NCBI GenBank assembly: GCA_041652815.1
Contig: JBAZGN010000003.1
Location: forward strand, 65,530-129,529
DNA from: Candidatus Omnitrophota bacterium
GTDB taxonomy: Bacteria; Omnitrophota; Gorgyraeia; Duberdicusellales; 4484-171
Direction of reading: 5' to 3'
Length of the DNA stretch: 64,000 nucleotides
The position numbers and the translations under genes are program-made. Position 1 is the stretch's first letter, and each line of letters opens with the position of its first letter. Of this stretch, positions 380 to 64,000 are shown in pieces. The notes below the pieces were generated by a model. The model was not told the origin of the DNA. It did not search any database and saw only the letters and a list, made by a program, of their open reading frames with translations.

Positions 380-1783
380 ATGGTTTATCAAAATGAAGCA
401 CAAATTTTTGACGGAAAAACATTAGTTGAGAAAGACGGAAAAATAGAAATTAAAAACCCTGATTTTTTCCGAAAAAAAATAGTCGATGACTTAATCGACA
501 CCATAATACTTTCCGATTCAAATCATCTTAAAAGACTATGTTATTTTGTTGCATATAACGCGGGGCTCGCTTTCGGGGTAATACCATCATCAATACAAGG
601 CTTGTATGAAGCACGGGGGAAGGGCGCTTTTAGCGGATTTACCGTGCCCGCAATGAACATAAGAACTCTTACTTATGACTTGGCGCGAGCGGTATATCGC
701 GCGGCAAACAAGATAAATGCCGGGGCTTTTATCTTTGAGATTGCAAAAAGTGAAATCGGCTACACTGGCCAAAGGCCTTTGGAATACTCTTCGGTTCTTA
801 TACTTGCCGCAATAAAAGAAAATTACACCGGGCCTATTTTTATCCAGGGAGACCATTTTCAGGTAAAAGCAAAAAATTACCTGCAGGACAAAGACAAGGA
901 ACTCAACCCTTTGAAAGATTTAATAAAAGAGGCAATTGATTGTTCTTTCTATAATATTGATATAGATACTTCCACTTTGGTTGACCTGTCGAAAAACAAT
1001 TTGGACGAACAGCAAAAATTAAATTATGAAGTCTGTGGCCAGCTAACAAAACACATACGCAGCCTTCAGCCAAAAAATATCGATATTTCAATAGGTGGCG
1101 AGATTGGAGAAGTCGGTGGAAAGAATTCTACACCGGAGGAATTACACGCATATATCAAAGGCTATCTTAAAGAAATTAAGAAATTAAAAGGTATATCCAA
1201 AATAAGCATACAAACAGGAACCTCGCACGGCGGCGTAGTTTTACCTGACGGCTCAATTGCAAAAGTAAGCATAGACTTTGATACGCTTAAGAAACTTTCT
1301 GAAATTGCCAGAAAAGATTATGGTTTAGCAGGCGCAGTGCAGCATGGCGCATCCACCCTGCCCAATGAAGCATTTCATACTTTCCCTGAAGTAGGCTGCG
1401 CAGAAATACACTTAGCTACACAATTTCAAAATATTGTCTATGATTATCTTCCGTTACCCCTTAAAGAAAAAATCTACGGATGGCTACACACGACTTATGC
1501 CGCAGAAAAGAAACCTGATATAACAAATGACCAGTTTATATATAAGACACGGAAAAATGCTTTAGGTCCGTTTAAAAAAGAAATACATTCACTGCCCAAA
1601 GAGTGGCGCGAGAAGATATCAAGTATACTAGAAGAAGAATTTTCTTTTCTTTTTGATAAGCTGCGCATAAAAGATACAAAAAACTTCGTCAAAGAGTATG
1701 TTCTGCCGGCTATTGTCGAAAAGAAAAAGGAAGATTTTCTTAAAGAAGAAAAAGATCTTGGCAAACTTGAAGGAGCAGACTGA
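380..1783 (+). CDS. Class II (metal-dependent) fructose/ketose-bisphosphate aldolase family protein, long form
   Basis: 467-aa ORF with a QGDHF (DH metal ligand) stretch, a TSHGG stretch and an HGASTLP stretch, resembling class II aldolase motifs. It lies immediately downstream of pfkA. Confidence 0.55.
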   Translation: MVYQNEAQIFDGKTLVEKDGKIEIKNPDFFRKKIVDDLIDTIILSDSNHLKRLCYFVAYNAGLAFGVIPSSIQGLYEARGKGAFSGFTVPAMNIRTLTYDLARAVYRAANKINAGAFIFEIAKSEIGYTGQRPLEYSSVLILAAIKENYTGPIFIQGDHFQVKAKNYLQDKDKELNPLKDLIKEAIDCSFYNIDIDTSTLVDLSKNNLDEQQKLNYEVCGQLTKHIRSLQPKNIDISIGGEIGEVGGKNSTPEELHAYIKGYLKEIKKLKGISKISIQTGTSHGGVVLPDGSIAKVSIDFDTLKKLSEIARKDYGLAGAVQHGASTLPNEAFHTFPEVGCAEIHLATQFQNIVYDYLPLPLKEKIYGWLHTTYAAEKKPDITNDQFIYKTRKNALGPFKKEIHSLPKEWREKISSILEEEFSFLFDKLRIKDTKNFVKEYVLPAIVEKKKEDFLKEEKDLGKLEGAD

Positions 1784-3559: not shown

Positions 3560-3588
3560 TTGACAAGTGGATAAGCGTTTGTTATCAT
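3560..3588 (+). promoter_or_regulatory. Putative sigma70-type promoter of the mreB operon (TTGACA-N17-TATCAT)
   Basis: A TTGACA at 3560-3565 is followed after a 17-nt spacer by TATCAT at 3583-3588. The mreB ATG is at 3607. Confidence 0.4.
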
Positions 3589-3606
3589 TGCTATAATTAC
3601 CTTAAT

Positions 3607-4683
3607 ATGAAAATAGTCAAATTCATAAACTCAGCTACCAGAATTATCAGCAATCTGCTTGGCGCTTTTTCCAACGATATCGGCATTGATTTAGGCACAG
3701 CGACAACGCTTGTTTATTTACGTGGCCAAGGAATTGTGCTTTGCGAACCTTCCGTCGTTGCAATATACAAAAATAGCGGTGCTGTACTTGCGGTAGGCGA
3801 AGAAGCTAAACGCATGCTCGGCAAAACCCCGGGAAGCATTTCAGCAATAAGGCCGATGAAAGATGGAGTTATCGCTGATTTTGACGTAACCGAAGAAATG
3901 CTTCGTTATTTTATAAACAAAGTTAACCCTCCGAATATATTTAGCAGTTTTCGAAGGCCAAGAATTGTAATAGCGGTACCTTCCGGAATAACCGAAGTTG
4001 AAAAAAGAGCCGTAAAAGATTCCGCTCTTAAGGCCGGCGCCAGAGAGGTTATCCCGGTTGAGCAATCTCTTGCCGCGGCTATCGGCGTAGGACTGCCTAT
4101 AACCGAGCCTCAAGGCAGTATGATTATTGACATCGGCGGTGGCACAACGGAAATAGCGGTAATTTCTTTAGGCGGAGCAGTATATGCACGTTCTGTAAGG
4201 GTAGGGGGAGATGAAATGGATGATGCGATCATAGAACATATGAAAAAAGCTTACAATCTTATGATAGGCGAACGCACAGCCGAAGAAATAAAAATAAAAA
4301 TAGGCTCTGCATGGCCGCTGGAAGAAGAACTAACTATGGAAGTGCGAGGCCGAGATTTGATTACAGGGCTTCCTAAATTTATCAGGATAAATTCGGAAGA
4401 AGTGCGTGAGGCGTTACAGATTCCCTTAAAAGAGATAATCGAGGCAACAAAAGTAACGCTTGAACGCACCCCGCCGGAGCTTGCTGCTGATTTGATCGAA
4501 AAAGGGATAGTACTTTGTGGCGGCGGCTCATTGCTGCGCGGCCTGGATAAATTAGTTTCTGAACAAACCGGCCTTGCCTGTTTTGTTGCAGATGACCCTT
4601 TAACGTCAGTTGCCCTGGGGACAGGCAAAATACTAGAAGACCCCAGGTTTTTAAAGAAGATTTCTCTTGTATCCACCTTCTAA
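3607..4683 (+). CDS. mreB: Rod shape-determining actin-like protein MreB
   Basis: 358 aa with the N-terminal motif [14 protein letters not shown] and the GGGTTEIAV and [13 protein letters not shown] actin-fold motifs. Confidence 0.9.
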
Positions 4684-20419: not shown

Positions 20420-21025
20420 ATGAATATAGCAATTTTAGCTTCAGGAAACGGAAGTAACTTTGAGGCGATAGTGAAAGCCGCAAAACGCGGTTACATTAAA
20501 GCCTTTATCAAGGTTCTAATTACCGACAAAAGCAATGCATATGTTCGGCAGCGTGCCAAACGCAACAAAATAAAAGATATACTTATCGACCCTTCAAAAT
20601 TTAAATCCAGGCTTGAGTTTGACGAAGAAGTGATTAAGGTCTTAGAAAAAGAAAAAATAGACTTGGTTGTTTTGGCCGGATTTATGCGGATACTTTCTGC
20701 GAAATTTGTAAAAAGGTTCAAAAACAGAATTCTTAATATTCATCCGGCGCTACTGCCTGCTTTTAAGGGAGAGAATGCTATTCGCAGAGCGTTACAACAT
20801 AACTGCAAGGTAACCGGTGTTACTGTTCATTTCGTAGACGAAAAAGTAGATAACGGGCCGATAATATTACAACAAGCCATAGAAATAAAAAGAGGTGAAA
20901 CGCTCGAAAGGCTTGAAGAAAGAATACACAATCTGGAACACAAATTATACCCCTTAGCTGTTAAACTCTTCACGGAAAGACGTATCAAAATAAAAAATAG
21001 AAATGTGGAAATTGAGCCCTTGTAG
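20420..21025 (+). CDS. purN: Phosphoribosylglycinamide formyltransferase
   Basis: 201 aa with an N-terminal ILASGNGSN stretch and the catalytic stretch NIHPALLPAFKG. Confidence 0.85.
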   Translation: MNIAILASGNGSNFEAIVKAAKRGYIKAFIKVLITDKSNAYVRQRAKRNKIKDILIDPSKFKSRLEFDEEVIKVLEKEKIDLVVLAGFMRILSAKFVKRFKNRILNIHPALLPAFKGENAIRRALQHNCKVTGVTVHFVDEKVDNGPIILQQAIEIKRGETLERLEERIHNLEHKLYPLAVKLFTERRIKIKNRNVEIEPL

Positions 21026-50590: not shown

Positions 50591-51601
50591 ATGAAACGAA
50601 TTCTTGTCGTAAATGTAAACTGGCTTGGCGATGCGATAATGACGACACCCGCCTTTAAGGCAATAAAAGAAAAATTCCCTTCTTCTTTTGTCGCAGTAAC
50701 GGCGCCTGAAAGAGTAAAAGAGGTATTCAGCGATAATCCCCATATCGATGAAGTAATAATTTTTGATGAAAAGAAAAACCAAAAAGCTTTTTCACAAAAA
50801 TTACGTTTCATACAACAATTACGAGCAAAAAAGTTTGACACAGCTTTTCTTATACACCGTTCATTTACTCGTGCCCTTATCTGTCTTCTTTCCGGAATAA
50901 AGGTAAGAATCGGCTACAGAAGGCTTAAGAATATATTCATAGTAAACAAGATGATTAATCCACCGGCAAAAAATATACATAAACAGGATTATTACCTATA
51001 TCTATTTGAAAAAGCTGCAATAGCTATTGCCGATAAGTTGCCCAAAGTGTATATTCAACAGCAAATACAGGAAAAATACAAAGCCGACATATCTATCATA
51101 CGCCAAAAACACACCTATCTTGTAGGCGTGAATCCTTCTGCAAACTGGCTGCTTAAACAATGGCCCCAAGAAAACTTTGCAATACTTTGCGATAAGCTCA
51201 TAAGAGAATTAAACTGCGGCATTCTTTTTATCGGTGCCAAGATTGATACAGCTATAGTCGACGGAGTTATTAATAAAATGGTAGGGGATGCCTATAATTT
51301 CTGCGCAAAAACAAATATAAAAGAACTTGCAGCAATAATAAAAAATGTTGATTTGTTTATATCCAATGACTCTGGCCCGGCACATTTATCTGCCTCGCTT
51401 GGAGTTAACACCCTTGTATTATTCGGGCCAACATCGTCCAAGCTTAGTGCGCCACGCGGCAAGGCAGTACAAATCTTAGAGAAATCCATACATTGCGAAA
51501 TACCGTGCTATAGTACAAGCTGCCAGGACAATCTTTGCATAAAAAATATAACAGTAGAGGACGCCTACATCAAAGCAAAAGAGTTTTTGAAAAATGTTTA
51601 A
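50591..51601 (+). CDS. Glycosyltransferase family 9 (LPS heptosyltransferase-like)
   Basis: 336 aa with an N-terminal ILVVNVNWLGDAIMTTPAFKAIKEKFP and a C-terminal FISNDSGPAHLSASLGVNTLVLFGPT. Confidence 0.7.
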   Translation: MKRILVVNVNWLGDAIMTTPAFKAIKEKFPSSFVAVTAPERVKEVFSDNPHIDEVIIFDEKKNQKAFSQKLRFIQQLRAKKFDTAFLIHRSFTRALICLLSGIKVRIGYRRLKNIFIVNKMINPPAKNIHKQDYYLYLFEKAAIAIADKLPKVYIQQQIQEKYKADISIIRQKHTYLVGVNPSANWLLKQWPQENFAILCDKLIRELNCGILFIGAKIDTAIVDGVINKMVGDAYNFCAKTNIKELAAIIKNVDLFISNDSGPAHLSASLGVNTLVLFGPTSSKLSAPRGKAVQILEKSIHCEIPCYSTSCQDNLCIKNITVEDAYIKAKEFLKNV

Positions 51602-52532
51602 AAACATAATCGTAAACCTGCCAAGCAATATCGGAGATACTATTTTAACGCTTCCAGCTCTCAACCGGCTCCACTTAAACTACCCGCAGGCAAAATTAAC
51701 TTTAATTTGCTCAAAACAAACACAAGAGTTTCTTTCGCATTACTCTGATGCTAACGAAACGCTTCTCTTCGATAAACGCTGGCCGGCAATGCGAAAATTT
51801 AAATTTTCGCTTAGCTTACGCCAAAAATACGACCTTATTGTCGATTTTAAAAATTCACTTTTACCATTATTTACCGGGGCGAAACGAACTCCATTTTTTA
51901 GAAAGTTTACGAAAAACTTGCCCGCAAAAGATAGATATCTTTATCTGATAAAAGATATCGCGCCAATTGATGCAAAAAAAACTGCACAATTTTTACTCAC
52001 GGAAGACGAAGAAAAAAAATGGAAATTGCCGCAAATTGAACAATCCGTATTCGTTGCCTGCGCATCGAATGCGCTTCAAAAACGCTACCCCTATAACCTA
52101 CTTAAAGAACTTGTAAAAAATCTTGCCAAACGCACGCCGGTTACGATATTGGGGCAGGAAGCAGACAGACAATTCTATAAAGATATTTTAAACATTCCCG
52201 GCGTAAATGACCTTGTCGGAAAAACAAAAATCCACGAAGTCTTTTATCTTCTAACGGCATACGCGCGCTTACTTGTATGCGTAGATTCAAGCATAATGCA
52301 TATCGCAAGCTACCTTGACATACCAATAGTAGCAATGTTTGGGCAAACCAGCGTTCTTAAATACGGCCCTTGGTCAAAAAAATATATTGTAGTGAAAAGA
52401 GACGACCTCGATTGTGTGCCTTGCGAAAATCCACATTGCCGGTTTAATCATGAATGCATGGAAATAGACCCAAAGCGCGTGCTTAGCGCGATAGATAAAT
52501 TAAACCCAAATAATCATGGAACAAATACGTAA
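51594..52532 (+). CDS. Glycosyltransferase family 9 (LPS heptosyltransferase-like)
   Basis: 312 aa with an N-terminal NIGDTILTLPALNRL and a C-terminal VCVDSSIMHIASYLDIPIVAMFGQT. Confidence 0.7.
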   Translation: MFKNIIVNLPSNIGDTILTLPALNRLHLNYPQAKLTLICSKQTQEFLSHYSDANETLLFDKRWPAMRKFKFSLSLRQKYDLIVDFKNSLLPLFTGAKRTPFFRKFTKNLPAKDRYLYLIKDIAPIDAKKTAQFLLTEDEEKKWKLPQIEQSVFVACASNALQKRYPYNLLKELVKNLAKRTPVTILGQEADRQFYKDILNIPGVNDLVGKTKIHEVFYLLTAYARLLVCVDSSIMHIASYLDIPIVAMFGQTSVLKYGPWSKKYIVVKRDDLDCVPCENPHCRFNHECMEIDPKRVLSAIDKLNPNNHGTNT

Positions 52533-53541
52533 AAAAATATTAATAATGCGTACGGATAGATTAGGGGATGTAATTCTCTCTACGCCCGCGATAGCAAACT
52601 TACGTAAATTCTATCCCGATAGCTATATTGCCTTTCTCTGCAGGCCATACACAAAAGAAGTTATAGAAGGCAATCCCCATCTAGATGAAATTATTATCTA
52701 TGACAAAAATAAAGAACATAAAAGCATTTTTGCATCAATAAAATTCTGCCTTGCCTTGCGTAAAAAAAAGTTTGATACTGTTTTTATCTTAAATCCAAAT
52801 AACCGCTCAAACATAATTGCATTATTTGCTGGTATTCCAGAGCGTATTGGGTTAAACCGGAAAATGGGTAGGCTGTTGACTCATCCTATAGAAGATAAGA
52901 AACATGAAGGAAAAAAACACGAGCTGGAATATACTTTGGACATCCTAAAAGAAGCCGGGGTTACAATTACAGAGAAACACACTTATTTTCCGATAAAAAA
53001 AGAATCGGAGGAACGGATAGAGGATTTGCTCGTAACGCATGGGATAAAAAATAATTCATTTTTAGTGATTCATCCTTCTGCCTCATGCCCGTCAAAACGC
53101 TGGCCGCAGGATTACTTCGTAAAACTGATAAGATTAATAAACGAAAGAACAAACTTAAGAATAGTTTTAATAAGTGCAGAGAATGAAAAGAAATTTGCTG
53201 ATAGCCTGGTAAAAGAAAAAAATACAATAGACCTAAGAGGGATTTTAAGCATTTCGGATATAGGTGCGCTTCTTAAACGCTCAAAACTATTCATATCAAA
53301 CGATTCAGGGCCTGTGCATATTGCGGCAAGCTTAAATTGCCCTGTGATTTCTATCTTCGGAAGGAATGACCCAGGCCTTTCACCTGTACGTTGGAGGCCG
53401 CTTGGTGAAAAATCATTTTATATCCATAAAGGAAATTCTTGCAAAAATTGCCTAGCTCATAATTGCGTTTTGGGTTTTCTGTGCCTTAAATCCATAACAC
53501 CGGAAGAAGTATTTGCTTTGGCCTTAAAAATATTAGAATAA
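52516..53541 (+). CDS. Glycosyltransferase family 9 (LPS heptosyltransferase-like)
   Basis: 341 aa with an N-terminal ILIMRTDRLGDVILSTPAIANLRKFYP and a C-terminal FISNDSGPVHIAASLNCPVISIFG. Confidence 0.7.
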   Translation: MEQIRKKILIMRTDRLGDVILSTPAIANLRKFYPDSYIAFLCRPYTKEVIEGNPHLDEIIIYDKNKEHKSIFASIKFCLALRKKKFDTVFILNPNNRSNIIALFAGIPERIGLNRKMGRLLTHPIEDKKHEGKKHELEYTLDILKEAGVTITEKHTYFPIKKESEERIEDLLVTHGIKNNSFLVIHPSASCPSKRWPQDYFVKLIRLINERTNLRIVLISAENEKKFADSLVKEKNTIDLRGILSISDIGALLKRSKLFISNDSGPVHIAASLNCPVISIFGRNDPGLSPVRWRPLGEKSFYIHKGNSCKNCLAHNCVLGFLCLKSITPEEVFALALKILE

Positions 53542-53598
53542 AGTTTGGAATCAAAAATCTAATGCGTCATAAAAAAACTGCTATAATATGCTTATAAG

Positions 53599-54786
53599 AT
53601 GAAAAAGGTTAAGCGGATTTTAATTATATCTTCCGACAAACACTTAAGCGATATTCTTCATTTCTGTTTCGACGGCTGGGGATACGAAGTTTTTGTACAC
53701 GAACCGAACATAGACGATATAATTGTAATTAAAAAAATATCACCTGACGCGATAGTAATAGACGTACATTCTGCAACCAAATCGCATCTTGAAATATGCA
53801 GGCTCCTTAAAGAAGATTTCATTACCGCTCTTATACCTATAATTGCTTTAATAAATAAAAGGCAGCTTAGAGAACAGCTTCTCACCTTAAAACAAGGAGT
53901 CGATGATTACTTGATAAAGCCTCCCGACCCACTGGACTTAAGAACACGCATAGAAATCGCGATAAAACGCTCGCAGTATAGCTTTTATTCAAGCCCTTTA
54001 ACCGGGCTTCCGGGTGCGCGGCTCATCGAAGATATCGTGAAAGAAAGAATCGAAAAAAATACTCCTTTTTCTTTCGCCCATATAGACATCGATAACTTTA
54101 AATCCTTTAATGATGTTTACGGCTACATAAAAGGCGACAAAGCCCTTATGCAAACTGCCTACATACTTTACAGCGTAATCAAGAAAATCGGAAATGCTGA
54201 TGATTTTATGGGCCATATAGGCGGTGATGATTTTGTTTTTATCACAACTCCCGATAAACATAAGGAAATTTGCCGCTATTTTATTTTTATGTTTGATAAC
54301 CTTATACCGTACCACTACTCAAAAAAAGATAGGGAACAGAACTTCGTAATTGCACGTAACCGTGCAAAACAGATAAGAAAAATGCCCCTTATGAGTGTAA
54401 CAATAGCTGTAGTGAATAAAAATAAACCAAATGAATTCAAGAATATAGTAGAAATCAACGAGAGGATAGCAGAGGTAAAAAAATATTTGAAAACTGTTCC
54501 GGGCAGCAAGTTTATGGCAGACAGGCGTACTTCTACCAATGACAAAGAAGACCTGCAGGTTTATAAAAAAGAGGACTTCTTTATAAACTCATACAAACCG
54601 ATAGGCCAAATCCTAATCGAACAACATAAGATAACCGGGGCACAGCTGGAAGAAGCCCTTACGGCAAATTGGAAGAGAGGAATAATACTGGGAGAAATAC
54701 TTCGAGATTGCGGCTTTGTAACCGAAGAGGACATTGAAAAAGCTTTAAAGATACAAAAAGAAATTCTTGAAAAATCGCGCAGCTGA
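53599..54786 (+). CDS. Response-regulator receiver domain / GGDEF-family domain (motif GGDDF) / C-terminal MshEN-like (T2SSE_N) c-di-GMP-binding domain
   Basis: 395 aa with an N-terminal REC-like domain (ILIISSDKH...AIVIDVHS...LIKP). The central domain has DIDNFKSFND and HIGGDDFVFI, which is GGDDF in place of GG[DE]EF. The C-terminus carries two 24-aa motifs of the MshEN consensus, IGQILIEQHKITGAQLEEALTAN and ILGEILRDCGFVTEEDIEKALKIQ. Confidence 0.65.
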   Translation: MKKVKRILIISSDKHLSDILHFCFDGWGYEVFVHEPNIDDIIVIKKISPDAIVIDVHSATKSHLEICRLLKEDFITALIPIIALINKRQLREQLLTLKQGVDDYLIKPPDPLDLRTRIEIAIKRSQYSFYSSPLTGLPGARLIEDIVKERIEKNTPFSFAHIDIDNFKSFNDVYGYIKGDKALMQTAYILYSVIKKIGNADDFMGHIGGDDFVFITTPDKHKEICRYFIFMFDNLIPYHYSKKDREQNFVIARNRAKQIRKMPLMSVTIAVVNKNKPNEFKNIVEINERIAEVKKYLKTVPGSKFMADRRTSTNDKEDLQVYKKEDFFINSYKPIGQILIEQHKITGAQLEEALTANWKRGIILGEILRDCGFVTEEDIEKALKIQKEILEKSRS

Positions 54787-54810: not shown

Positions 54811-54838
54811 TTGACAGGAAAAGGTTTATTGCTATACT
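54811..54838 (+). promoter_or_regulatory. Putative sigma70 promoter of the hydrogenase cluster (TTGACA-N16-TATACT)
   Basis: TTGACA at 54811-54816 and TATACT at 54833-54838. Confidence 0.5.
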
Positions 54839-54870
54839 ATCTAAATCCATTTTTTTTATTTTGAAATTGA

Positions 54871-54888
54871 TTGTGAAAAAATTCACAA
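54871..54888 (+). promoter_or_regulatory. Perfect CRP/FNR-family operator (TTGTGA-N6-TCACAA) immediately upstream of the first hydrogenase-cluster gene
   Basis: The sequence TTGTGAaaaaatTCACAA is a perfect 18-bp palindrome of the TGTGA-N6-TCACA type. It is centred about 40 nt downstream of the predicted -10 element and 16 nt before the ATG at 54896. Confidence 0.55.
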
Positions 54889-54895
54889 AAGACCA

Positions 54896-55936
54896 ATGAT
54901 CAACAAATATTTATATATAAAAAACAACAATTTTTTAAGGCTTCTGGATAATTTATCTGCGGATTATAAAGTATTTACACCACAAGAAACACGAAAAAAC
55001 TATTTCTGGAAAGAATATAAAGGCGCCTTTGAATTCTCTAAATACCGCTCAGTAACGAACCTCAGGCAATTCTTTACGCCTGCCGTAGAACAAATCGATA
55101 ACTATTTTGGCTCGAATAAAGCTCAAGAAAGAAAACCCATCTGCATCGTTGGCGCAAAGGCATGCGACCTCGGGAATGCCCTTAAAATACACGATTATGT
55201 TTTCCTTGAAGGAGACGTTGATAGTGCCTATAAACAACTAAGAGAAAAAAATCTCATAATTTCCAGTGACTGTACTGCCTTTAAGGAAACTTGCTTCTGC
55301 CTTGCCTTGGGTAATATGCCATACCCGGAAGAATTATTCGATTTAAACATTTCATGCGTAAACGATGGTTACCTTGTGGAAATCGGTTCTAAAAAAGGAG
55401 AAGGTACTGTAGCTTCAAATAAAAGCCTTTTTGAAACAGTAAATGACACAACACTTAAAGAACGTGAGAATAACCGAAATAGCGTAACGAAAGAATTCCG
55501 CTGTCAAATAGAACCCCTGGAATTTCCGAAAGATTCATTGCTTTATAATCTTATAAAAAACGGTTACGGCGATAAATTATGGCCTGAAGAAGCTTTAAAA
55601 TGCGTTGAATGCGGCGCTTGCATTATGAACTGCCCAACCTGCCATTGTTTTCTTTTATTTGATACAAAAGATAAGGACGGATATTTCAAGGGAAGGGTTT
55701 GGGACGGTTGCCAATATAAAAATTTCACACGCGTTGCCGGAGGCGCTAATGCGCTTAGGCTACGCGAACAAAGACTGCGTAACCGTTATATCAAAAAATT
55801 CGAATTTTTCCCTGAAAGAATAAAATTATATGCCTGCACGGGATGCGGTAGGTGCGTTGAAGGCTGCCCTGCGAAAATAGATATACGAAAAATTTTTAAG
55901 CTACTCAACGAAAATCAAAATAGCGCTAAAAAATGA
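54896..55936 (+). CDS. Iron-sulfur oxidoreductase subunit, AsrA / sulfhydrogenase-beta (HydB)-like
   Basis: 346 aa with C-terminal 4Fe-4S motifs CVECGACIMNCPTCHC and CTGCGRCVEGCP. Its size and cysteine pattern match AsrA/HydB-type subunits. Confidence 0.55.
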   Translation: MINKYLYIKNNNFLRLLDNLSADYKVFTPQETRKNYFWKEYKGAFEFSKYRSVTNLRQFFTPAVEQIDNYFGSNKAQERKPICIVGAKACDLGNALKIHDYVFLEGDVDSAYKQLREKNLIISSDCTAFKETCFCLALGNMPYPEELFDLNISCVNDGYLVEIGSKKGEGTVASNKSLFETVNDTTLKERENNRNSVTKEFRCQIEPLEFPKDSLLYNLIKNGYGDKLWPEEALKCVECGACIMNCPTCHCFLLFDTKDKDGYFKGRVWDGCQYKNFTRVAGGANALRLREQRLRNRYIKKFEFFPERIKLYACTGCGRCVEGCPAKIDIRKIFKLLNENQNSAKK

Positions 55937-56745
55937 GCATATATCTACCGAATAAAGCAACAATTACCAATATAATCGAGGAAACCCCGACAATAAAAAC
56001 TTTTGTCTTTAAGCCTGTTGATTCTTTTTCTTTTAAAACAGGCCAATTTATTGAATTAAGCTATCCGGGTATAGGCGAAGCGCCCTTTACGCCGTCTTCT
56101 GACCCAAATAATAAAAAAGCTTTCGAGGTAACCATAATGAAGGTAGGCAAAGTAACGGAACTGTTTCATAAAGCAAAAATAGGGGATTGTTTAGGCATGC
56201 GCGGGCCTTACGGAAACGGCTATCCGGTTGATAGTTTTAAAAACAAAGAACTTTTGATAGTTGGCGGAGGCGTGGGCTTAGCACCACTGCGCTCATTGAT
56301 TTATGCCCTTTACAACCGCATAAATGATTTTAAAAAAATAGTTATATGCTACGGGGCACGCAGCCCTCAGGATATTGTATATAAATATCTTCTTGAAGAG
56401 TTTAAAAAACCAAAAAATGTAGAATTCAGGCTTACTGTCGATAGAGCCGACAACACCTGGAAAGGAAACGTAGGTATTGTGACAACTCTTTTAGAAAAAT
56501 TGCCTTTGGATATTAAACAAGCCACGGGTATAGTTTGCGGGCCGCCGATTATGATGAAATTCGCAAGCCTTAAACTCTTAGAACTGGGTTTTTCTCCAAA
56601 AAACATACACTTATCCATGGAAAAGAACATGAGTTGCGGCTTGGGTAAATGCGGCCATTGCCGGCTTGGCAAATACTATATATGTAAAGACGGCCCTGTT
56701 TTTATATTCGATGATATAAAAGATATGTGGGACATTTGGGATTAG
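55933..56745 (+). CDS. FAD/NAD(P)-binding oxidoreductase subunit, AsrB / sulfhydrogenase-gamma (HydG) / PyrK-like, with a C-terminal 2Fe-2S site
   Basis: 270 aa with an FNR-like beta-barrel (GQFIELSYPG), an NAD(P)-binding GGGVGLAPL and a C-terminal CGLGKCGHC cluster. Confidence 0.65.
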   Translation: MSIYLPNKATITNIIEETPTIKTFVFKPVDSFSFKTGQFIELSYPGIGEAPFTPSSDPNNKKAFEVTIMKVGKVTELFHKAKIGDCLGMRGPYGNGYPVDSFKNKELLIVGGGVGLAPLRSLIYALYNRINDFKKIVICYGARSPQDIVYKYLLEEFKKPKNVEFRLTVDRADNTWKGNVGIVTTLLEKLPLDIKQATGIVCGPPIMMKFASLKLLELGFSPKNIHLSMEKNMSCGLGKCGHCRLGKYYICKDGPVFIFDDIKDMWDIWD

Positions 56746-56825: not shown

Positions 56826-57320
56826 ATGAAAAGAATATTGCTAGATTTAGAGAAATGCGATAACTGCCCTGAGTGTGTCGTTAAATGCAGTTATATTTAT
56901 CATCCCCAAAATAAAGGAATAACCTCCTTGAGGGAATTCGCAACCTTTGCCGTTGTCTGCCACAGGTGTGAAGAAGCCCCTTGCATTAATTCGTGCTACC
57001 ACAATGCGCTGGCGAAGGACGAAAATAAAATAATAAAACGGGCAAAATTTTTATGCACCTCCTGCAAAACCTGTACACATGCTTGCCCTTTTGGAGTAAT
57101 ATTCGATGATTTCCTGGATTTCCTTGATTCAAAATGTGATTTTTGTATTGGTAGAAATAAACATCTGTGCATCGAAACTTGCACACATAAAGCATTAGAA
57201 ATCCTGGACATCGACAAAGATGATATAGCTCAGAATACTTACGTTATCTCTGATTATCTTGCAATTAAGCATCCGAAAAAATGGTTCCTTGATGATAAAG
57301 TGCTCTATAAGAAAAAATAA
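56826..57320 (+). CDS. 4Fe-4S ferredoxin-like electron-transfer subunit
   Basis: 164 aa with several Cys motifs (CDNCPECVVKC, CHRCEEAPCINSC, CTSCKTCTHACP, CDFCIGRNKHLCIETC). Confidence 0.6.
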   Translation: MKRILLDLEKCDNCPECVVKCSYIYHPQNKGITSLREFATFAVVCHRCEEAPCINSCYHNALAKDENKIIKRAKFLCTSCKTCTHACPFGVIFDDFLDFLDSKCDFCIGRNKHLCIETCTHKALEILDIDKDDIAQNTYVISDYLAIKHPKKWFLDDKVLYKKK

Positions 57321-57322
57321 TA

Positions 57323-58252
57323 ATGATAAAGATGATTTTACAGTATTTAATTTTCCCTGGCCTGGCATTTTGTTTCTTTATGGGCGCTATGGGTTTCTGG
57401 CTTGAAAGAAAACTAACTGCCCGCTTCCAGTATCGAGTGGGCCCGCCCTGGTATCAGAATTTTATTGACGTAATGAAATTATTTCTAAAAGAAACAATGA
57501 TACCGCGCGATGCGACAAAAACTATTTTTATAGCTTCACCAATTATAAGTTTATCGGCAGTAATTTTAGTAAGTATAATACTGGCAAATAATTACTTTCT
57601 AAACATAAGTTTTATCGGCGATGTTATCGTAATTTTATATTTACTGCTCATACCATCGCTTTTCATTATTCTCGGCGCACTTTCCTCAAAAAACCCCTTA
57701 GCGCTTGTGGGGGCCGCAAGAGAAACAAAACTTATGCTTGCTTACGAATTTGTATTTATCGCAAGCTTAATAATTGCGATAATTAAATCGGGTAATTCAA
57801 TTATGATGGCGGACATAATCGGTATCCAGATACTAAATAAACCTAATATAGCCAGTTTCTCAGGCGCAATCGCCTTTGTGCTGGCTATTTTTTATGCTCA
57901 GGCAAAATTAGGTATAGTGCCGTTTGATATGGCTGAAGCAGAGCAGGAAATTATGGCAGGTACTGTAATTGAGTATTCCGGGCCGCTTCTCGGCTTTTAT
58001 AAAATATCAAAATTAATGCTTTATTTTTCCCTGCCGTTATTTATAATTTCCTTATTCGTAAAAATTTCTGTAGAATCTGCATTTTTAAGATATTTAATAT
58101 TTTTTGCAGAATATATACTTATCATTTTTATTATGTCTGTAATTAAAAATATAAATCCAAGGCTGCGGATAAAAGATGCTTTGGGATTTTTTTGGTTTTT
58201 ACTTTTTCCTCTTGGAATTTTGGGTATAATTTTGGCGCAATTCGGACTATAA
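57323..58252 (+). CDS. Membrane subunit of an energy-converting hydrogenase, NuoH/HycD/EchB family
   Basis: 309 aa, polytopic, with a NuoH-like motif near the N-terminus (WLERKLTARFQYRVGP). Confidence 0.7.
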   Translation: MIKMILQYLIFPGLAFCFFMGAMGFWLERKLTARFQYRVGPPWYQNFIDVMKLFLKETMIPRDATKTIFIASPIISLSAVILVSIILANNYFLNISFIGDVIVILYLLLIPSLFIILGALSSKNPLALVGAARETKLMLAYEFVFIASLIIAIIKSGNSIMMADIIGIQILNKPNIASFSGAIAFVLAIFYAQAKLGIVPFDMAEAEQEIMAGTVIEYSGPLLGFYKISKLMLYFSLPLFIISLFVKISVESAFLRYLIFFAEYILIIFIMSVIKNINPRLRIKDALGFFWFLLFPLGILGIILAQFGL

Positions 58253-58686
58253 TGAAACTAAAAGAAAAGATACTTACAAAATCGCTGTGGGTGTATCATT
58301 TAAGTGCAGGCTCGTGCAACAATTGCGATATAGAAATACTGGACTGCCTTACCCCGCGATTTGATATCGAACGTTTCGGAATGCAGCTGGTAGGCAGCAT
58401 TCGCCACGCAGACGTTTTACTTATAACCGGCGCGATGAATAAAAAATCGGCAAAAATCCTTAAAAGCCTCTATGAACAGGCGCCAAAACCATTGTTCGTT
58501 GCTGCTGTCGGGACTTGCCCATGCTCTCAGCATATGTTTAAAGGAAGTTACCCTATGCTTAGTGCCCTTGATGAAATAATTCCTGTTGACGTATACATTC
58601 CGGGATGTCCTCCAAAGCCCGAAGCTATAATTGCCGGAATTGCCAAGTTAATTAATAAACTTACTGCAAAAGATAAAAAAGGATAG
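58252..58686 (+). CDS. [NiFe]-hydrogenase small subunit, NuoB/HycG/EchC family
   Basis: Four proximal-cluster Cys are present (GSCNNC ... GTCPCS ... PGCPP). The start is set at 58252 (TAATG overlap with the upstream stop) rather than the 58192 of the ORF track. Confidence 0.75.
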   Translation: MKLKEKILTKSLWVYHLSAGSCNNCDIEILDCLTPRFDIERFGMQLVGSIRHADVLLITGAMNKKSAKILKSLYEQAPKPLFVAAVGTCPCSQHMFKGSYPMLSALDEIIPVDVYIPGCPPKPEAIIAGIAKLINKLTAKDKKG

Positions 58687-58688
58687 AA

Positions 58689-59123
58689 ATGATAAAAGAC
58701 GAAGTTAAAAAAATATTGGCAGCAAAGATAAAAAATTGGGAAGTAAAAAACCCTAAAAGAATATATTTTGAGGTAGATAAAAAAGATATAAAGGAAATTG
58801 CCCGTAGCCTTTACAAAGATTTTAACATGAGGCTCTCAACTATTACCGGTATAGATAACGAAAAGAATTTTGAATTAATTTTCCATTTTGGCTTAGATAA
58901 AACAGGGGAACTTTTTAATGTAAGAACTTTTATCAACGATAAGGATAACCCGGAGATAGATTCTCTTGTTGATCTATTCAAATCATCCGACTGGGTAGAA
59001 AGAGAAATTCATGAGCTTCTCGGCATAAATTTTAAAGGCCATCCCAACTTAAAACATCTATTGCTTGATGACGACTGGCCAAAAGACAGTTACCCCTTAA
59101 GGAAGGATTATAAAAATGAGTGA
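58689..59123 (+). CDS. Hydrogenase subunit of the NuoC (30 kDa) family
   Basis: 144-aa NuoC/EchD-like protein (LSTITGID, HPNLKHLLLDDDWPKD) located between the small and large subunit genes. Confidence 0.6.
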   Translation: MIKDEVKKILAAKIKNWEVKNPKRIYFEVDKKDIKEIARSLYKDFNMRLSTITGIDNEKNFELIFHFGLDKTGELFNVRTFINDKDNPEIDSLVDLFKSSDWVEREIHELLGINFKGHPNLKHLLLDDDWPKDSYPLRKDYKNE

Positions 59124-60303
59124 GAAAAAAGTAATACCTATAGGGCCGTATCATCCCTTACAGGAAGAACCAGAATTTTTCCGCCTGATAGTTGAAGGCG
59201 AACGCGTAACCGAACTTGAAATAGAAATTGGCTATAATCACCGTGGCATTGAAAAAATCGCCGAATCAAAACATTGGGACCAGGTACCGTTTGCGGTAGA
59301 GCGAATCTGTGGTATATGTTCGAGTTCTCACCCTTTTGCTTATTGCCTTGCAGTTGAAGACTTGCTCGGCATAACTGTGCCGGAACGCGCTAATTATATA
59401 AGAATGATAATCGATGAACTCCAGCGTATACATTCACACCTGCTTTGGCTGGGGCTTGCCGGACACTTTATCGGTTACAACACTGTCTGGATGTGGGCAT
59501 GGAAAGCAAGGGAACCAATTTTAGATTTATTTGAATTAATCTGCGGTAACCGCCAAAATTACGCGATGATGAAAATAGGCGGAGTAAGAAGGGATATAAA
59601 AGAAGAAACCTATTCTGTCATCAAAAAAACCATCAAAGAATTGTATCCGGTGCTTAATATGTTTAAAAAAGTAGTCAATGACGACCCGGTGATTGGCAAA
59701 CGCACAAAAGGCGTAGGTATTTTAAAAAAAGAGGAAGGCATATCTCTTGGCGTAGTTGGCCCGACAGCACGCGCAAGCGCAATTGACGTAGATGTGCGCC
59801 GTGATGATGCCTATGCGTTTTATAATAATATTAATTGGTCGGTCATTGTAAGAAACGAAGGGGATATTTACGCAAAAATTATAGTAAGAGTGCTTGAGAT
59901 GTTTGAGTCTTGCTCAATCATCGAACAATGCCTCGAAAAAATTACTAAGGGCCCGATAGAAGTTGAAGTAAGAGATATACCCGAAGGCGAAGGCATAGGA
60001 CGGGTGGAGGCCCCGCGCGGCGAATGCTTCCATTATGTTCGAAGCGACGGGACTAACCGGCCGGTAAGGCATAAAATAAGGGCGCCTTCCTTTGTGAATG
60101 TTCCAAGCAATATCGTTACTGTACCGGGCTATACTATTTCAGATGCTGCATTGACACTCGCGGCAGTTGACCCGTGTTACTGCTGCACTGAAAGATGCGC
60201 AGTGTTTACAAAGAACGGGCAAAAGGTTTTTACCGGAGACGATCTTATCAAACTATCCATAGAAAAAACCGCAAAGCTTAAAAATGAATATGGCCTTGAA
60301 TAA
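59116..60303 (+). CDS. Group 4 (energy-converting, membrane-bound) [NiFe]-hydrogenase large subunit, NuoD/HycE/EchE family
   Basis: 395 aa with the N-terminal Ni-binding motif RICGICSSSH (RxCGxCxxxH) and the C-terminal DPCYCCTER (DPCxxCxxR). Both Cys pairs are retained, unlike in complex I NuoD. Confidence 0.8.
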   Translation: MSEKKVIPIGPYHPLQEEPEFFRLIVEGERVTELEIEIGYNHRGIEKIAESKHWDQVPFAVERICGICSSSHPFAYCLAVEDLLGITVPERANYIRMIIDELQRIHSHLLWLGLAGHFIGYNTVWMWAWKAREPILDLFELICGNRQNYAMMKIGGVRRDIKEETYSVIKKTIKELYPVLNMFKKVVNDDPVIGKRTKGVGILKKEEGISLGVVGPTARASAIDVDVRRDDAYAFYNNINWSVIVRNEGDIYAKIIVRVLEMFESCSIIEQCLEKITKGPIEVEVRDIPEGEGIGRVEAPRGECFHYVRSDGTNRPVRHKIRAPSFVNVPSNIVTVPGYTISDAALTLAAVDPCYCCTERCAVFTKNGQKVFTGDDLIKLSIEKTAKLKNEYGLE

Positions 60304-61915
60304 TCTATTTATATTTGATTCTCTTTCGAAACTAGTGGGTTTTTTTGTTATATTTTTTAGCGTCCTTATGGCTATTTATTCTGCGGGATTTCTCAAAAGC
60401 AGAAGGATAACTTATTATATCTGGTTTTTCCTGACGATGATAGCTTCACTGGGAGTTGTTTTTTCGGACAACATCATACTTATTGCTGTCTTCTGGGGTT
60501 TTCTCGGTTTAAGTTTATTTAAATTAATAAATCTCTACGATGACGAAAACGCATCTAGTATAGCTAAAAAAACTTTTATTATCATCGGCGCAACCGACGG
60601 ATTCTTATTGTTTGGATTTTTACTTTATAACTTTTTGACATCTTCTATGAGCTTAACCGCGAATACACTGATTATAAACAATAATCTTTCTTTTGTTTCT
60701 TTTATTTTTATAGCGATAGCCTGTTTCGCCAAGGCAGGCTGCATGCCAATGCATACCTGGATTCCCGAAACCGCCAAATGCGCACCTTTACCTGTTGTAG
60801 CATATTTGCCGGCTTCATTGGATAAACTTTTAGGAATATATTTGCTGGTACGCATAGTAAAAAATTCCTTTTTCCTCGATACAACGGCAAAATTTACGCT
60901 TATAATCGCCGGAGCAGCTACCGTAATCTTTGCCGTTATGATGGCGCTTATTCAGCATGATATCAAAAAGCTACTAGGCTACCATGCGATAAGCCAAGTC
61001 GGTTATATGGTGCTTGGGCTAGGCTGCGCAACACCTATAGGCATTGCCGCAGGCCTATATCATATGATTAATAATGCTATATATAAATGCTGTTTGTTCT
61101 TAGGCGCGGGAAATGTAGAAAACCAAACCGGCACAACCAGGCTTCATGATTTAGGCGGTTTAGCTCGCTTTATGCCTATAACCTTTATCACATTTTTAGT
61201 AGCTGCATTTTCAATATCCGGCATTCCGCCGCTTAACGGGTTCGTTTCGAAATGGATGATCTACCAGGCGCTTAGCGAATTTATGAATTCTCTCAGCTCT
61301 TATCCTTTAAAAATAATCGTCGCCTTAGCATTGCTAAGCGCTCTCATAGGGAGCGGCCTTACGTTGGCTTCCTTCTTAAAAGTAATTTCCAGCGTATTTT
61401 TTGGAAATGCCAGAAAACGCGCGAAAGAAAGCAGTTTCCTGCTTTTGCTTCCGGTTATAATATTAGCTTTTTTATGCATTATTTTCGGAGTGTTTGCCTA
61501 TTCAACCATACTTAAAGTTATCGAAGAAGCTATAGGAAGTTTTAATATGGTGGGTTTATGGCAACCTGTAGGCGCTACAGCTTTTATGGCGCTTGGCATA
61601 ATTATCGGCCTGATTGTTTTTAAATTTTCTTCGAAAAATCTGCGCATCAGCCCGACGTATACGGGAGGAGAAGAATCAAACCCTCACGAAGAAGCAAAAA
61701 TAGAGGATTTCTATGCAACAATCAGTGATATACCATTTTTGAAGAAAATCTATGCTCTTGCCGAAGGTAAAGTATTCGATATATACGAGCAATTAAAAAA
61801 AATAGCCTTTATTTTGTCCACTTTGTTAAAAAGATTGCACAATGGAGTGCTGCCGACATACTTAATCTGGTGTCTTTTAGGCATGATGGGATTATTTTTT
61901 GTATTTTTCAAATAA
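60284..61915 (+). CDS. NuoL/MrpA/MbhH-like antiporter-type membrane subunit
   Basis: 543 aa with about 14 TM helices and a conserved Nuo L/M/N-family core (HTWIPETAKCAPLPVVAYL). Confidence 0.7.
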   Translation: MNMALNNLFIFDSLSKLVGFFVIFFSVLMAIYSAGFLKSRRITYYIWFFLTMIASLGVVFSDNIILIAVFWGFLGLSLFKLINLYDDENASSIAKKTFIIIGATDGFLLFGFLLYNFLTSSMSLTANTLIINNNLSFVSFIFIAIACFAKAGCMPMHTWIPETAKCAPLPVVAYLPASLDKLLGIYLLVRIVKNSFFLDTTAKFTLIIAGAATVIFAVMMALIQHDIKKLLGYHAISQVGYMVLGLGCATPIGIAAGLYHMINNAIYKCCLFLGAGNVENQTGTTRLHDLGGLARFMPITFITFLVAAFSISGIPPLNGFVSKWMIYQALSEFMNSLSSYPLKIIVALALLSALIGSGLTLASFLKVISSVFFGNARKRAKESSFLLLLPVIILAFLCIIFGVFAYSTILKVIEEAIGSFNMVGLWQPVGATAFMALGIIIGLIVFKFSSKNLRISPTYTGGEESNPHEEAKIEDFYATISDIPFLKKIYALAEGKVFDIYEQLKKIAFILSTLLKRLHNGVLPTYLIWCLLGMMGLFFVFFK

Positions 61916-62456
61916 TATGATTGAAATAAATTTACTCTTAATATTTATAATTATTGCGGCTATAGCTGCAGTTAAAATGAAAGACCTGCTTGGTTCGGTT
62001 GTAGCAGTGGGTGTAGCCGGGTTTGGTTTAGTAGTTAGCTTTTTATCCCTTAAAGCACCTGACTTGGCAATTACGCAGCTTGTAGTTGAAATTTTATGCC
62101 TGATTATACTTATCCGTGCAACCATAAAAGTAGACCTTCCTTTTTCCACATCCGGCAGATGGTTAGTAAACACGACAGCCGCTATAGCATTTCTTGTTAT
62201 GTTTCTCATCTATGGCTATAAAGCTATTTTGAACTTGCCGTATTTTGGAAACCCTACGATGACAACATCGGTTTTCTATTTTAATAAAACTATGGAAAGT
62301 GTCCATGCAACTAATGTCGTATCGGCAATAAACCTGAATTTCCGCGCCTACGATACATTAGGCGAAGCCACGGTATTATTTGCCGCAGCTGTAGGGATTA
62401 TGGTAATAATGCGCAAAAAAGGCAGACTCACTAACGAAAACAAAAATGATGAATAA
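61899..62456 (+). CDS. Mrp/Mbh antiporter-module small subunit (DUF4040 plus MnhB-related, MbhD/E-like)
   Basis: 185 aa. The C-terminal part has the MnhB-related motif NLNFRAYDTLGEATVLFAAAVGI. Confidence 0.5.
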   Translation: MYFSNNMIEINLLLIFIIIAAIAAVKMKDLLGSVVAVGVAGFGLVVSFLSLKAPDLAITQLVVEILCLIILIRATIKVDLPFSTSGRWLVNTTAAIAFLVMFLIYGYKAILNLPYFGNPTMTTSVFYFNKTMESVHATNVVSAINLNFRAYDTLGEATVLFAAAVGIMVIMRKKGRLTNENKNDE

Positions 62457-62916
62457 AAATAACGGAATGAGCCTGATAGTTAAGACAGTAACGCGCCTGC
62501 TTGTAGGTTTTATACTGCTTTACGGAATCTACATAGTTTTACACGGGCATATTTCCCCGGGCGGAGGCTTTGCCGGCGGTTTTATTATAGCTTTATCGTA
62601 CATTCTTTTCATGCTCGCTTTCGGCAAAGAAGAGATACTGAAAAGAATACCTCAACCAATGATATCGTTTTTGGAAAGCCTTGGAGCGCTTTTATTTCTC
62701 GTAATCGCTGTGTTTGGATTTTTTGGCGGATATTTCTTCGCAAACTGGCTGCCTAAGGGGGCGCCCTTTAAGCTGCTTTCTGCCGGCACTATTCCTATTT
62801 CAAATATTGCGCTTGCTTTACTTGAAGTTTCTCTTGGGTTATTTGGAATATTTTTAGTATTGGTATTATTAAAATTTACACCTCTTAAAGAGGGGAAAAT
62901 AAAGGACAATAAATAA
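62446..62916 (+). CDS. Mrp/Mbh antiporter-module subunit, MnhB-like
   Basis: 156 aa with the MnhB signature motif HGHISPGGGFAGGF. Confidence 0.55.
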   Translation: MMNKNNGMSLIVKTVTRLLVGFILLYGIYIVLHGHISPGGGFAGGFIIALSYILFMLAFGKEEILKRIPQPMISFLESLGALLFLVIAVFGFFGGYFFANWLPKGAPFKLLSAGTIPISNIALALLEVSLGLFGIFLVLVLLKFTPLKEGKIKDNK

Positions 62917-62917
62917 C

Positions 62918-63256
62918 ATGCTTACTTACTTTTTATGCTTAGTACTGTTTTGCGTAGGGCTATATGCGATTTTACGTAAGCGTAACATCATAAAGATAAT
63001 AATCGGTATAGTAATCTGCGAGTATGCGATTAATCTTTTCCTTATCCTTTTCGGCTACAAAATGAACGGCCGTTCCCCTTTATATTCACCAGACCAGGAA
63101 ATTGTTAGTATGGTTGACCCGCTTCCGCAGGCACTGGCAATGACGGCTATAGTTATCAGCTTGGCGACAACGGCGCTCTTGGTGGCTATTGCAATAAGAA
63201 TATACGAAAAATACGGGACTTTCGATATTACAAAAATAAATAAACTGAAAGGTTAA
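62918..63256 (+). CDS. Mrp/Mbh antiporter-module subunit, MnhC/NuoK-like
   Basis: 112 aa with 3 TM helices, positioned between the MnhB-like and MnhD-like genes. Confidence 0.5.
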   Translation: MLTYFLCLVLFCVGLYAILRKRNIIKIIIGIVICEYAINLFLILFGYKMNGRSPLYSPDQEIVSMVDPLPQALAMTAIVISLATTALLVAIAIRIYEKYGTFDITKINKLKG

Positions 63257-63257
63257 A

Positions 63258-64000
63258 ATGCAATTTATTCCCTTATTCATTATTTTGCCTCTTGGCGCTG
63301 CCTTCCTTATTTCGCTTGCCGGAAAAAATAAGACAAAGTTTTGCGATGTTTTTTCGGTTATCATTACTTTTGCTCTTTTTATTCTTTCGCTGTTTTTTGT
63401 TTTTAAAGCAAAAATGTGCGCTACTGCGCTAATTTATAAAGTTGGAGGTTGGGGATTACCGGGCGGAATTATTCTGGTACTGGATGGCTTAAGCATTTTC
63501 ATGCTTACGATAATAAACTTTATTGCTTTTATAATTAATATTTTTTCTATTAATTACATGAAAAGGTTCAGCGCAAAACATAGATTCTACACTCTTTTCA
63601 TGCTTATGATCGCAGGTATGAATGGGGTGGCTATGACCGGTGATATTTTTAATCTTTTTGTCTTTTATGAGATAGCTTCGATAGCAAGCTACGCGCTGGT
63701 AGCATTTGGCACAGAAAAAGAAGAGCTTGAAGCTTCCTTAAAGTATACAATCATAGGTGTTGTTGGCTCTTTATTCATACTTCTCGGCATAGCTTTCCTG
63801 TATGCTTATACCTCTACGCTGAATATGGCAGAAATCGCATCTCGCTTAGCGCAAAACGGCATAAATTCCGCTGTTATTTTCGTAAGTATTTTGTTTATCG
63901 CGGGTTTCGGCATCAAATCCGCAATAGTACCTTTTCATGCCTGGCTACCGGATGCTCATCCTGCTGCTCCTGCACCTATTTCAGCAATGCTTTCGGGAAT
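63258..64000 (+). CDS. MnhD/NuoM/NuoN-like antiporter membrane subunit (5' part only; continues beyond the window)
   Basis: The ORF starts at ATG 63258 and stays open to the end of the window. It is polytopic with the NuoN/MrpD-type core AWLPDAHPAAPAPISAMLSG. Confidence 0.6.
   Translation, partial: MQFIPLFIILPLGAAFLISLAGKNKTKFCDVFSVIITFALFILSLFFVFKAKMCATALIYKVGGWGLPGGIILVLDGLSIFMLTIINFIAFIINIFSINYMKRFSAKHRFYTLFMLMIAGMNGVAMTGDIFNLFVFYEIASIASYALVAFGTEKEELEASLKYTIIGVVGSLFILLGIAFLYAYTSTLNMAEIASRLAQNGINSAVIFVSILFIAGFGIKSAIVPFHAWLPDAHPAAPAPISAMLSG

Follow-up and report, generated by a model that had tools for sequence, protein, structure and literature searches.

The window, the 64-kb stretch of DNA analysed here, ends inside a hydrogenase operon on the forward strand, which continues beyond the last position (64000). 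The operon, the predicted promoter before it and the inverted repeat that lies between the two are made up of the following features.

54811..54838, + strand: sigma-70-type promoter, with the -35 hexamer TTGACA at 54811-54816, a 16-nt spacer, a TG at 54830-54831 and the -10 hexamer TATACT at 54833-54838
54839..54870, + strand: T-rich spacer or leader, 32 nt from the -10 hexamer to the operator; its length (28-33 nt) and T-richness are kept in the clade
54871..54888, + strand: inverted repeat TTGTGAAAAAATTCACAA, the predicted operator
54896..55936, + strand: first operon gene, predicted Fe-S protein of the Fer4_22 family (sulfhydrogenase beta / AsrA-like), an assignment at the family level only, below the equivalog cutoffs
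55933..56745, + strand: predicted FAD/NAD(P)-binding Fe-S flavoprotein (sulfhydrogenase gamma / AsrB-like), with FAD_binding_6, NAD_binding_1 and DHODB_Fe-S_bind domains
56826..57320, + strand: 4Fe-4S ferredoxin-like subunit (Fer4_11)
57323..58252, + strand: NuoH/MbhM-like membrane subunit (PF00146)
58252..58686, + strand: NuoB-like hydrogenase small subunit (PF01058)
58689..59123, + strand: NuoC-like subunit (PF00329)
59116..60303, + strand: [NiFe]-hydrogenase large subunit, NuoD-like (PF00346 and PF00374)
60290..64000, + strand: Mrp antiporter-like module (Proton_antipo_M, MbhD/E, MnhB, NuoK-like and a further antiporter subunit)

The translated large subunit carries RICGICSSSH near its N-terminus and DPCYCC near its C-terminus, that is, both CxxC Ni-Fe ligand motifs. 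A NuoB/C/D/H-like core, a multi-subunit Mrp module and an extra oxidoreductase module occur together here, as they do in the Mbh-Mrp-oxidoreductase type of group 4 [NiFe] hydrogenase reported in Elusimicrobia, Saganbacteria and Thermococcales (bioRxiv 10.1101/765248); judged from its predicted products, the operon encodes an enzyme of that type. The same report gives the function of the oxidoreductase module as unknown, reports no regulator for the Mbh-Mrp-oxidoreductase type and mentions Rex only beside [FeFe] group C hydrogenases.

The gene immediately upstream of the promoter (53599-54786) encodes a REC-GGDEF protein with GGDDF in place of GGDEF/GGEEF. The Pfam GGDEF match of this protein is partial (profile positions 5-92 of 161), and no Pfam match is found past residue 220 or thereabouts. 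The gene adjoins the operon only in the three closest relatives (loci L002-L004). Genes for family 9 glycosyltransferases (heptosyltransferases) form a cluster at 50591-53541 that is syntenic 5' of the operon in many Omnitrophota loci (L002, L004, L006, L031, L069, L071, L075 and L076); such genes make up 24 of the 82 upstream neighbour genes.

The inverted repeat sits between the promoter (54811-54838) and the first start codon (ATG at 54896), as the earlier note on this DNA had proposed. Coming after GAAATTGA, it reads TTGTGAA AAAA TTCACAA and is followed by AAGACCA and the ATG. It had been described as an exact 18-bp palindrome; its symmetry is in fact confined to two 7-nt arms, TTGTGAA (54871-54877) and TTCACAA (54882-54888), which enclose a non-palindromic AAAA spacer (54878-54881). 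The distances given earlier also need adjustment. The gap between the site and the ATG is 7 nt and not 16, and the site begins 32 nt past the end of the -10 hexamer, somewhat closer than the 35-40 nt assigned to it. The TTGACA-N16-TATACT promoter itself is borne out: with its TG extension (TTGACA-16-TGcTATACT) it scores 11 of 12. Transcription would start near 54845, about 7 nt past the -10 hexamer, and the repeat would then cover +27 to +44, with its centre at about +35. This is the position of a repressor site, and on this point the earlier suggestion of a repressor or roadblock agrees with what is seen, a genuine operator with a strong promoter on one side and the hydrogenase operon on the other. 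The centre of the site lies 16.5 nt 5' of the start codon of the first gene, whose N-terminus is conserved in its homologues.

An identical promoter, TTGACA-16-TGnTATACT, is present in the window and in the nine closest relatives (55-80% protein identity). In the same 10 loci the -10 hexamer and the operator are separated by 28-33 nt, the operator deviates from the consensus at one position at most, and the start codon follows 0-7 nt later; promoter, spacer, operator and start codon are thus kept as one module while the surrounding DNA diverges. In the aligned loci L002-L010, the T-rich spacer of about 30 nt that corresponds to 54839-54870 is conserved in length and composition. One relative (L003, 66% identity) has a perfect operator (1233-1250) and the same promoter, with the operator 124 nt 5' of the start of the protein match; no long ORF begins beside this operator. 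Insertion, frameshift or a difference in assembly may account for this.

The earlier note had assigned the site to a regulator of the CRP/FNR family. The E. coli CRP site is TGTGA-N6-TCACA, and HcpR and CooA use variants of it. The core of the window site equals this CRP-type consensus; such a core is common to several regulators of the CRP family, and the motif alone does not discriminate. A second protein to be considered is Rex, a winged-helix/Rossmann-fold repressor that senses the NADH/NAD+ ratio. Its operator in S. aureus was defined by EMSA as TTGTGAAW4TTCACAA (PMC2883068), and the cross-phylum consensus of Ravcheev et al. 2012, as cited in PMC6391272, is TTGTGAANNNNTTCACAA. The window site matches this consensus (TTGTGAA-N4-TTCACAA) at all 14 specified positions, and its spacer consists entirely of A.

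Could such a site have arisen by chance? The window has a G+C content of 38% and its intergenic DNA is rich in A and T, which makes a fortuitous palindrome conceivable. The site is, however, the only match to TTGTGA-N6-TCACAA in the window, against a mean of 0.01 per window in dinucleotide-preserving shuffles, where one shuffle in 100 had any match. Block shuffles gave 0.025 sites per window for the 18-mer Rex consensus at one mismatch and none at zero mismatches. A single other site in the window, inside a gene at 20706, comes within two mismatches of the Rex consensus, where 0.5 would be expected by chance. The looser pattern TGTGA-N6-TCACA with up to two mismatches is no more frequent than chance predicts (13 matches versus 15.7 expected). 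The related idea that the repeat is the terminator of the upstream GGDEF gene is contradicted by its make-up: the stem is not G+C-rich, there is no T-run, and no terminator is predicted at the site.

Forty homologues of the first operon gene were aligned, and with this alignment 80 loci were fetched from species-representative genomes. A perfect TGTGA-N6-TCACA is present in 27 of 79 upstream regions of the first gene (about 250-270 nt each), where about one would be expected from the locus-wide rate. All 37 perfect occurrences in 783 kb are accounted for by these 27, directly 5' of the first gene, and by 10 others that lie just 5' of a preceding rex gene, about 650 nt 5' of the Fe-S gene; none is found elsewhere. 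A search of 78 loci (779,385 bp) with the 18-mer Rex consensus, allowing up to two mismatches, gave a similar picture. The operon-head regions, 45,084 bp in all, hold 50 of the 52 sites obtained, among them every one of the 30 with no more than one mismatch. An operon-head site within two mismatches is found in 46 of the 78 loci, 21 of the 32 that are led by rex and 25 of the 46 others, and these loci belong to several phyla. The remaining 32 loci have no site within two mismatches; control through this operator is thus not universal in the set. Conservation at the orthologous position across several phyla refutes the chance palindrome, and we consider it extremely improbable that the repeat is an accident of A/T-rich DNA or a terminator.

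In 32 of the 78 loci (about 40%) the rex gene just mentioned is the immediate 5' neighbour of the operon and has the same orientation; the operator is found either before rex or between rex and the operon. Its product has the Pfam domains Put_DNA-bind_N (PF06971) and CoA_binding (PF02629), as in locus L019 (5356-5988), and scores above the NCBIfam equivalog cutoffs for Rex (NF003993, with 251-275 bits where the cutoff is 217; NF003995, likewise above cutoff). It aligns over its full length with T. aquaticus Rex, entry 3IKT included (E = 9e-50), and with the PDB Rex entries 3IKT and 1XCB at E values of about 1e-49, and seven representative sequences keep both the QVRKDL-YFG-FG stretch and the GxGxxG motif. 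By these signatures the linked gene is a bona fide rex, with predicted winged-helix DNA-binding and Rossmann NAD(H)-binding domains. The apparent control of this hydrogenase by Rex is seen in Omnitrophota and in MAGs that were deposited under the labels Planctomycetia, Atribacterota, Latescibacterota and Spirochaetota. Operons led by rex often have two Rex-like sites 5' of rex, 21 nt or two helical turns apart (L039, L043 and L073), a spacing that suggests cooperative binding of two Rex dimers.

No such linkage is seen in the clade of the window. No rex was found in the window, in the flanks (up to 6 kb per side, less at contig ends) of L002-L012, the 11 relatives closest to it (55% identity or more), or on the ENA and Logan contigs of 4.8-21.5 kb that were matched by proteins from both ends of the window and from the operon. 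The earlier statement that the window holds no gene for the CRP/FNR-type regulator was confirmed and extends to rex. A regulator encoded outside the window is thus called for equally if the site is bound by a CRP-, HcpR- or CooA-like protein, acting as repressor or class II activator, and if it is bound by Rex. The neighbourhood of the operon elsewhere tells the two apart. The gene that adjoins orthologous operons, in 32 of 78 loci, is rex and not a member of the CRP/FNR family. Searches with phmmer, using E. coli CRP and FNR as queries (a method of limited sensitivity), gave no hit to any ORF of the window or of the 80 loci. Likewise, no recurrent cNMP-binding or HTH_Crp family was found by Pfam among the 82 upstream neighbours at the 25 operator-bearing loci without an adjoining rex; these neighbours are glycosyltransferases, Fe-S proteins and the like, with no recurrent regulator, and the one regulator that Pfam scans of the upstream neighbours did show is the REC-GGDEF protein limited to L002-L004. 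Rex is the only regulator that is recurrently linked to the operon.

The letters of the site and its position point the same way. None of the 47 best sites departs from TGTGA and CACAA, a T precedes TGTGA in 41 of them and an A in none, positions 7 and 12 are A...T in the clade of the window, and the spacers of the 47 related sites are overwhelmingly A/T. The window site thus resembles CRP/FNR sites (those of E. coli CRP, HcpR and CooA) in its TGTGA-N6-TCACA core and dimer symmetry and departs from them at the flanking and inner positions, which follow the TTGTGAA-N4-TTCACAA pattern of Rex. CRP/FNR sites activate transcription from near -41.5 (class II) or from -61.5 and beyond (class I). Activation of either class from the window site would put the transcription start inside conserved coding sequence: the class II option raised in the earlier note requires a start about 41 nt downstream of the site centre, which would fall within the first gene. 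What the site has in common with a CRP/FNR operator is its symmetric core; it has neither the activation spacing nor, in the window and the 80 loci, a linked cognate regulator. We therefore regard binding by an off-window CRP/FNR-family protein as improbable and do not retain that assignment. As for the expectation of a redox-, CO- or NO-type regulator, its redox part fits Rex well, and its CO and NO part (CooA, HcpR) finds no support.

A different kind of explanation places the function of the repeat in the RNA. Transcribed into the leader, it would form a hairpin of 7 bp with a 4-nt loop (predicted at -5.6 kcal/mol; z = -3.45 relative to shuffled 24-mers) against the start codon of a gene that lacks a Shine-Dalgarno sequence, and could in that way control translation or mRNA stability and not transcription. 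The close approach of the site to the start codon in the clade, ending 0-7 nt before it, would suit such a role. However, the stem is weak and A-U rich, and the 81-nt leader as a whole folds like shuffled sequence (z = -0.05). The lack of a Shine-Dalgarno sequence is also the normal state in the source genome (about 34 of 54 window genes), and in distant loci the site stands 30-170 nt from the start codon. The arms frequently lose their symmetry at pairs 1-18, 6-13 and 7-12; the departures are one-sided in every case (C-A, A-G and T-T, for example), and not one compensatory pair change is seen in the 47 sites, in which the TGTGA and CACAA segments are invariant across phyla to a degree that a stem alone would not require. 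One-sided departures together with invariant TGTGA/CACAA are what contacts between a protein and specific bases would be expected to produce. Base-specific recognition by a protein explains these data and an RNA stem does not, and any effect on translation would be secondary and incidental. A hairpin as the main function of the repeat is accordingly judged very improbable. In the clade of the window, where the operator abuts a start codon without a Shine-Dalgarno sequence, the repeat might nevertheless act as an mRNA hairpin in addition.

Taken together, these observations make it very probable that 54871-54888 is a Rex operator of the group 4 hydrogenase operon, at which a Rex protein encoded outside the window would block transcription until NADH releases it. 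The site has the 18-bp inverted repeat and A/T spacer of a Rex operator, a promoter/leader position compatible with repression, and a phylogenetic footprint. In pattern, spacer and placement in the promoter or leader of an energy or redox operon it is like the Rex operators of Bacillota, Actinomycetota and Thermotogota; as in S. coelicolor, where rex is autoregulated, there are related genomes with a rex gene that itself bears the site. It differs from other Rex systems in its host phylum, Omnitrophota, and in that rex is unlinked to the operon in the clade of the window. There is also a difference in geometry: the Rex sites mapped in S. aureus overlap the promoter (PMC2883068), whereas the operator of the window lies farther downstream, centred at about +35 from the predicted start and abutting the start codon. 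The possibility of a second promoter within the operator itself (TGaAAAAAT, its end 14 nt 5' of the ATG) was considered and set aside, as its letters are inseparable from the Rex consensus; bound Rex would occlude it too.

Rex operators before hydrogenase operons are already well known. In EMSA, Rex of Caldicellulosiruptor bescii binds 5' of two hydrogenase operons, Ech [NiFe] and Hyd [FeFe] (PMC6391272), and control of the Ni-CODH/ECH genes by Rex is among the predictions for Parageobacillus given in PMC13077300. The window shares with C. bescii Ech and Parageobacillus CODH-ECH a Rex operator 5' of an operon for a group 4, membrane-bound, energy-converting [NiFe] hydrogenase, and a logic in which abundant NADH or a lack of electron acceptors lifts repression. 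It differs from them in that its enzyme is of the Mbh-Mrp type with a HydB/HydG-like (AsrA/AsrB-like) oxidoreductase module added, and in that its operator is predicted from sequence. Compared with the Mbh-Mrp-oxidoreductase hydrogenases described previously (bioRxiv 10.1101/765248), the operon of the window is set apart by its tie to Rex, through the operator here and through an adjoining rex in 32 loci.

[quoted passage not shown] Applied to the window, a low ratio would lead a Rex dimer, encoded elsewhere in the genome, to occupy both TTGTGAA half-sites at about +27 to +44. Bound there, it would stop RNA polymerase, by hindering promoter clearance or by standing as a roadblock at an early stage of elongation. 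Accumulating NADH would bind Rex and remove it from the DNA, the operon would be transcribed, and the hydrogenase complex would then dispose of excess reducing power as H2. The first two subunits resemble the NAD(P)H-binding sulfhydrogenase beta and gamma subunits, and control by NADH would make physiological sense because a predicted FAD/NAD(P)-binding flavoprotein stands at the head of the operon. We infer that Rex binds the site in the source organism, that it acts there as a roadblock and that the complex is linked to NAD(P)H. Most likely, then, a build-up of NADH is the signal on which this Omnitrophota bacterium turns on its membrane-bound hydrogenase.

The distribution of operator and rex over loci from several phyla bears on a broader and more tentative proposal, which we put forward as possible, at somewhat less than even chances: that control of the Mbh-Mrp-oxidoreductase hydrogenase by Rex is ancestral and extends across phyla. 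If so, the oxidoreductase module with its HydG-like subunit would be the entry point for NAD(P)H, and the complex would function as an NADH-responsive, ion-coupled, H2-evolving redox valve.

Omnitrophota are an uncultured phylum, often with ultra-small cells. No report linking Rex to Omnitrophota or to the Mbh-Mrp-oxidoreductase hydrogenase was found in the literature searched, and within that literature the site is the first regulatory handle on the energy metabolism of the phylum. Assignment to a specific regulator, Rex with its NADH/NAD+ signal, would replace a CRP/FNR-type sensor of CO, NO or redox state. It would also link a widespread and functionally unassigned hydrogenase to the cellular NADH pool, and it supports the idea of a role for the extra flavoprotein module in coupling NAD(P)H to H2 production. 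A reconstruction of the Rex regulon across these MAGs can, moreover, take the operator as its seed.

Genes of glycolysis are common targets of Rex elsewhere. Phosphofructokinase and fructose-bisphosphate aldolase genes are present at the start of the window (380-1783) and also in L082; the 18-mer scan of the window found no Rex-like site before the two genes of the window.

A feature of the translation signals may be added. Even with lenient scoring, a Shine-Dalgarno sequence precedes only about 20 of 54 crude gene calls across the window. Several window genes have instead a TGnTATAAT-like extended -10 element that ends 10-12 nt before the ATG, for example at 53579-53601 (tgctataatatgcttataagATG) and at 3587-3609 (attgctataattaccttaatATG). 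In the Omnitrophota source genome, mRNAs with a very short leader, or with none, may be common.
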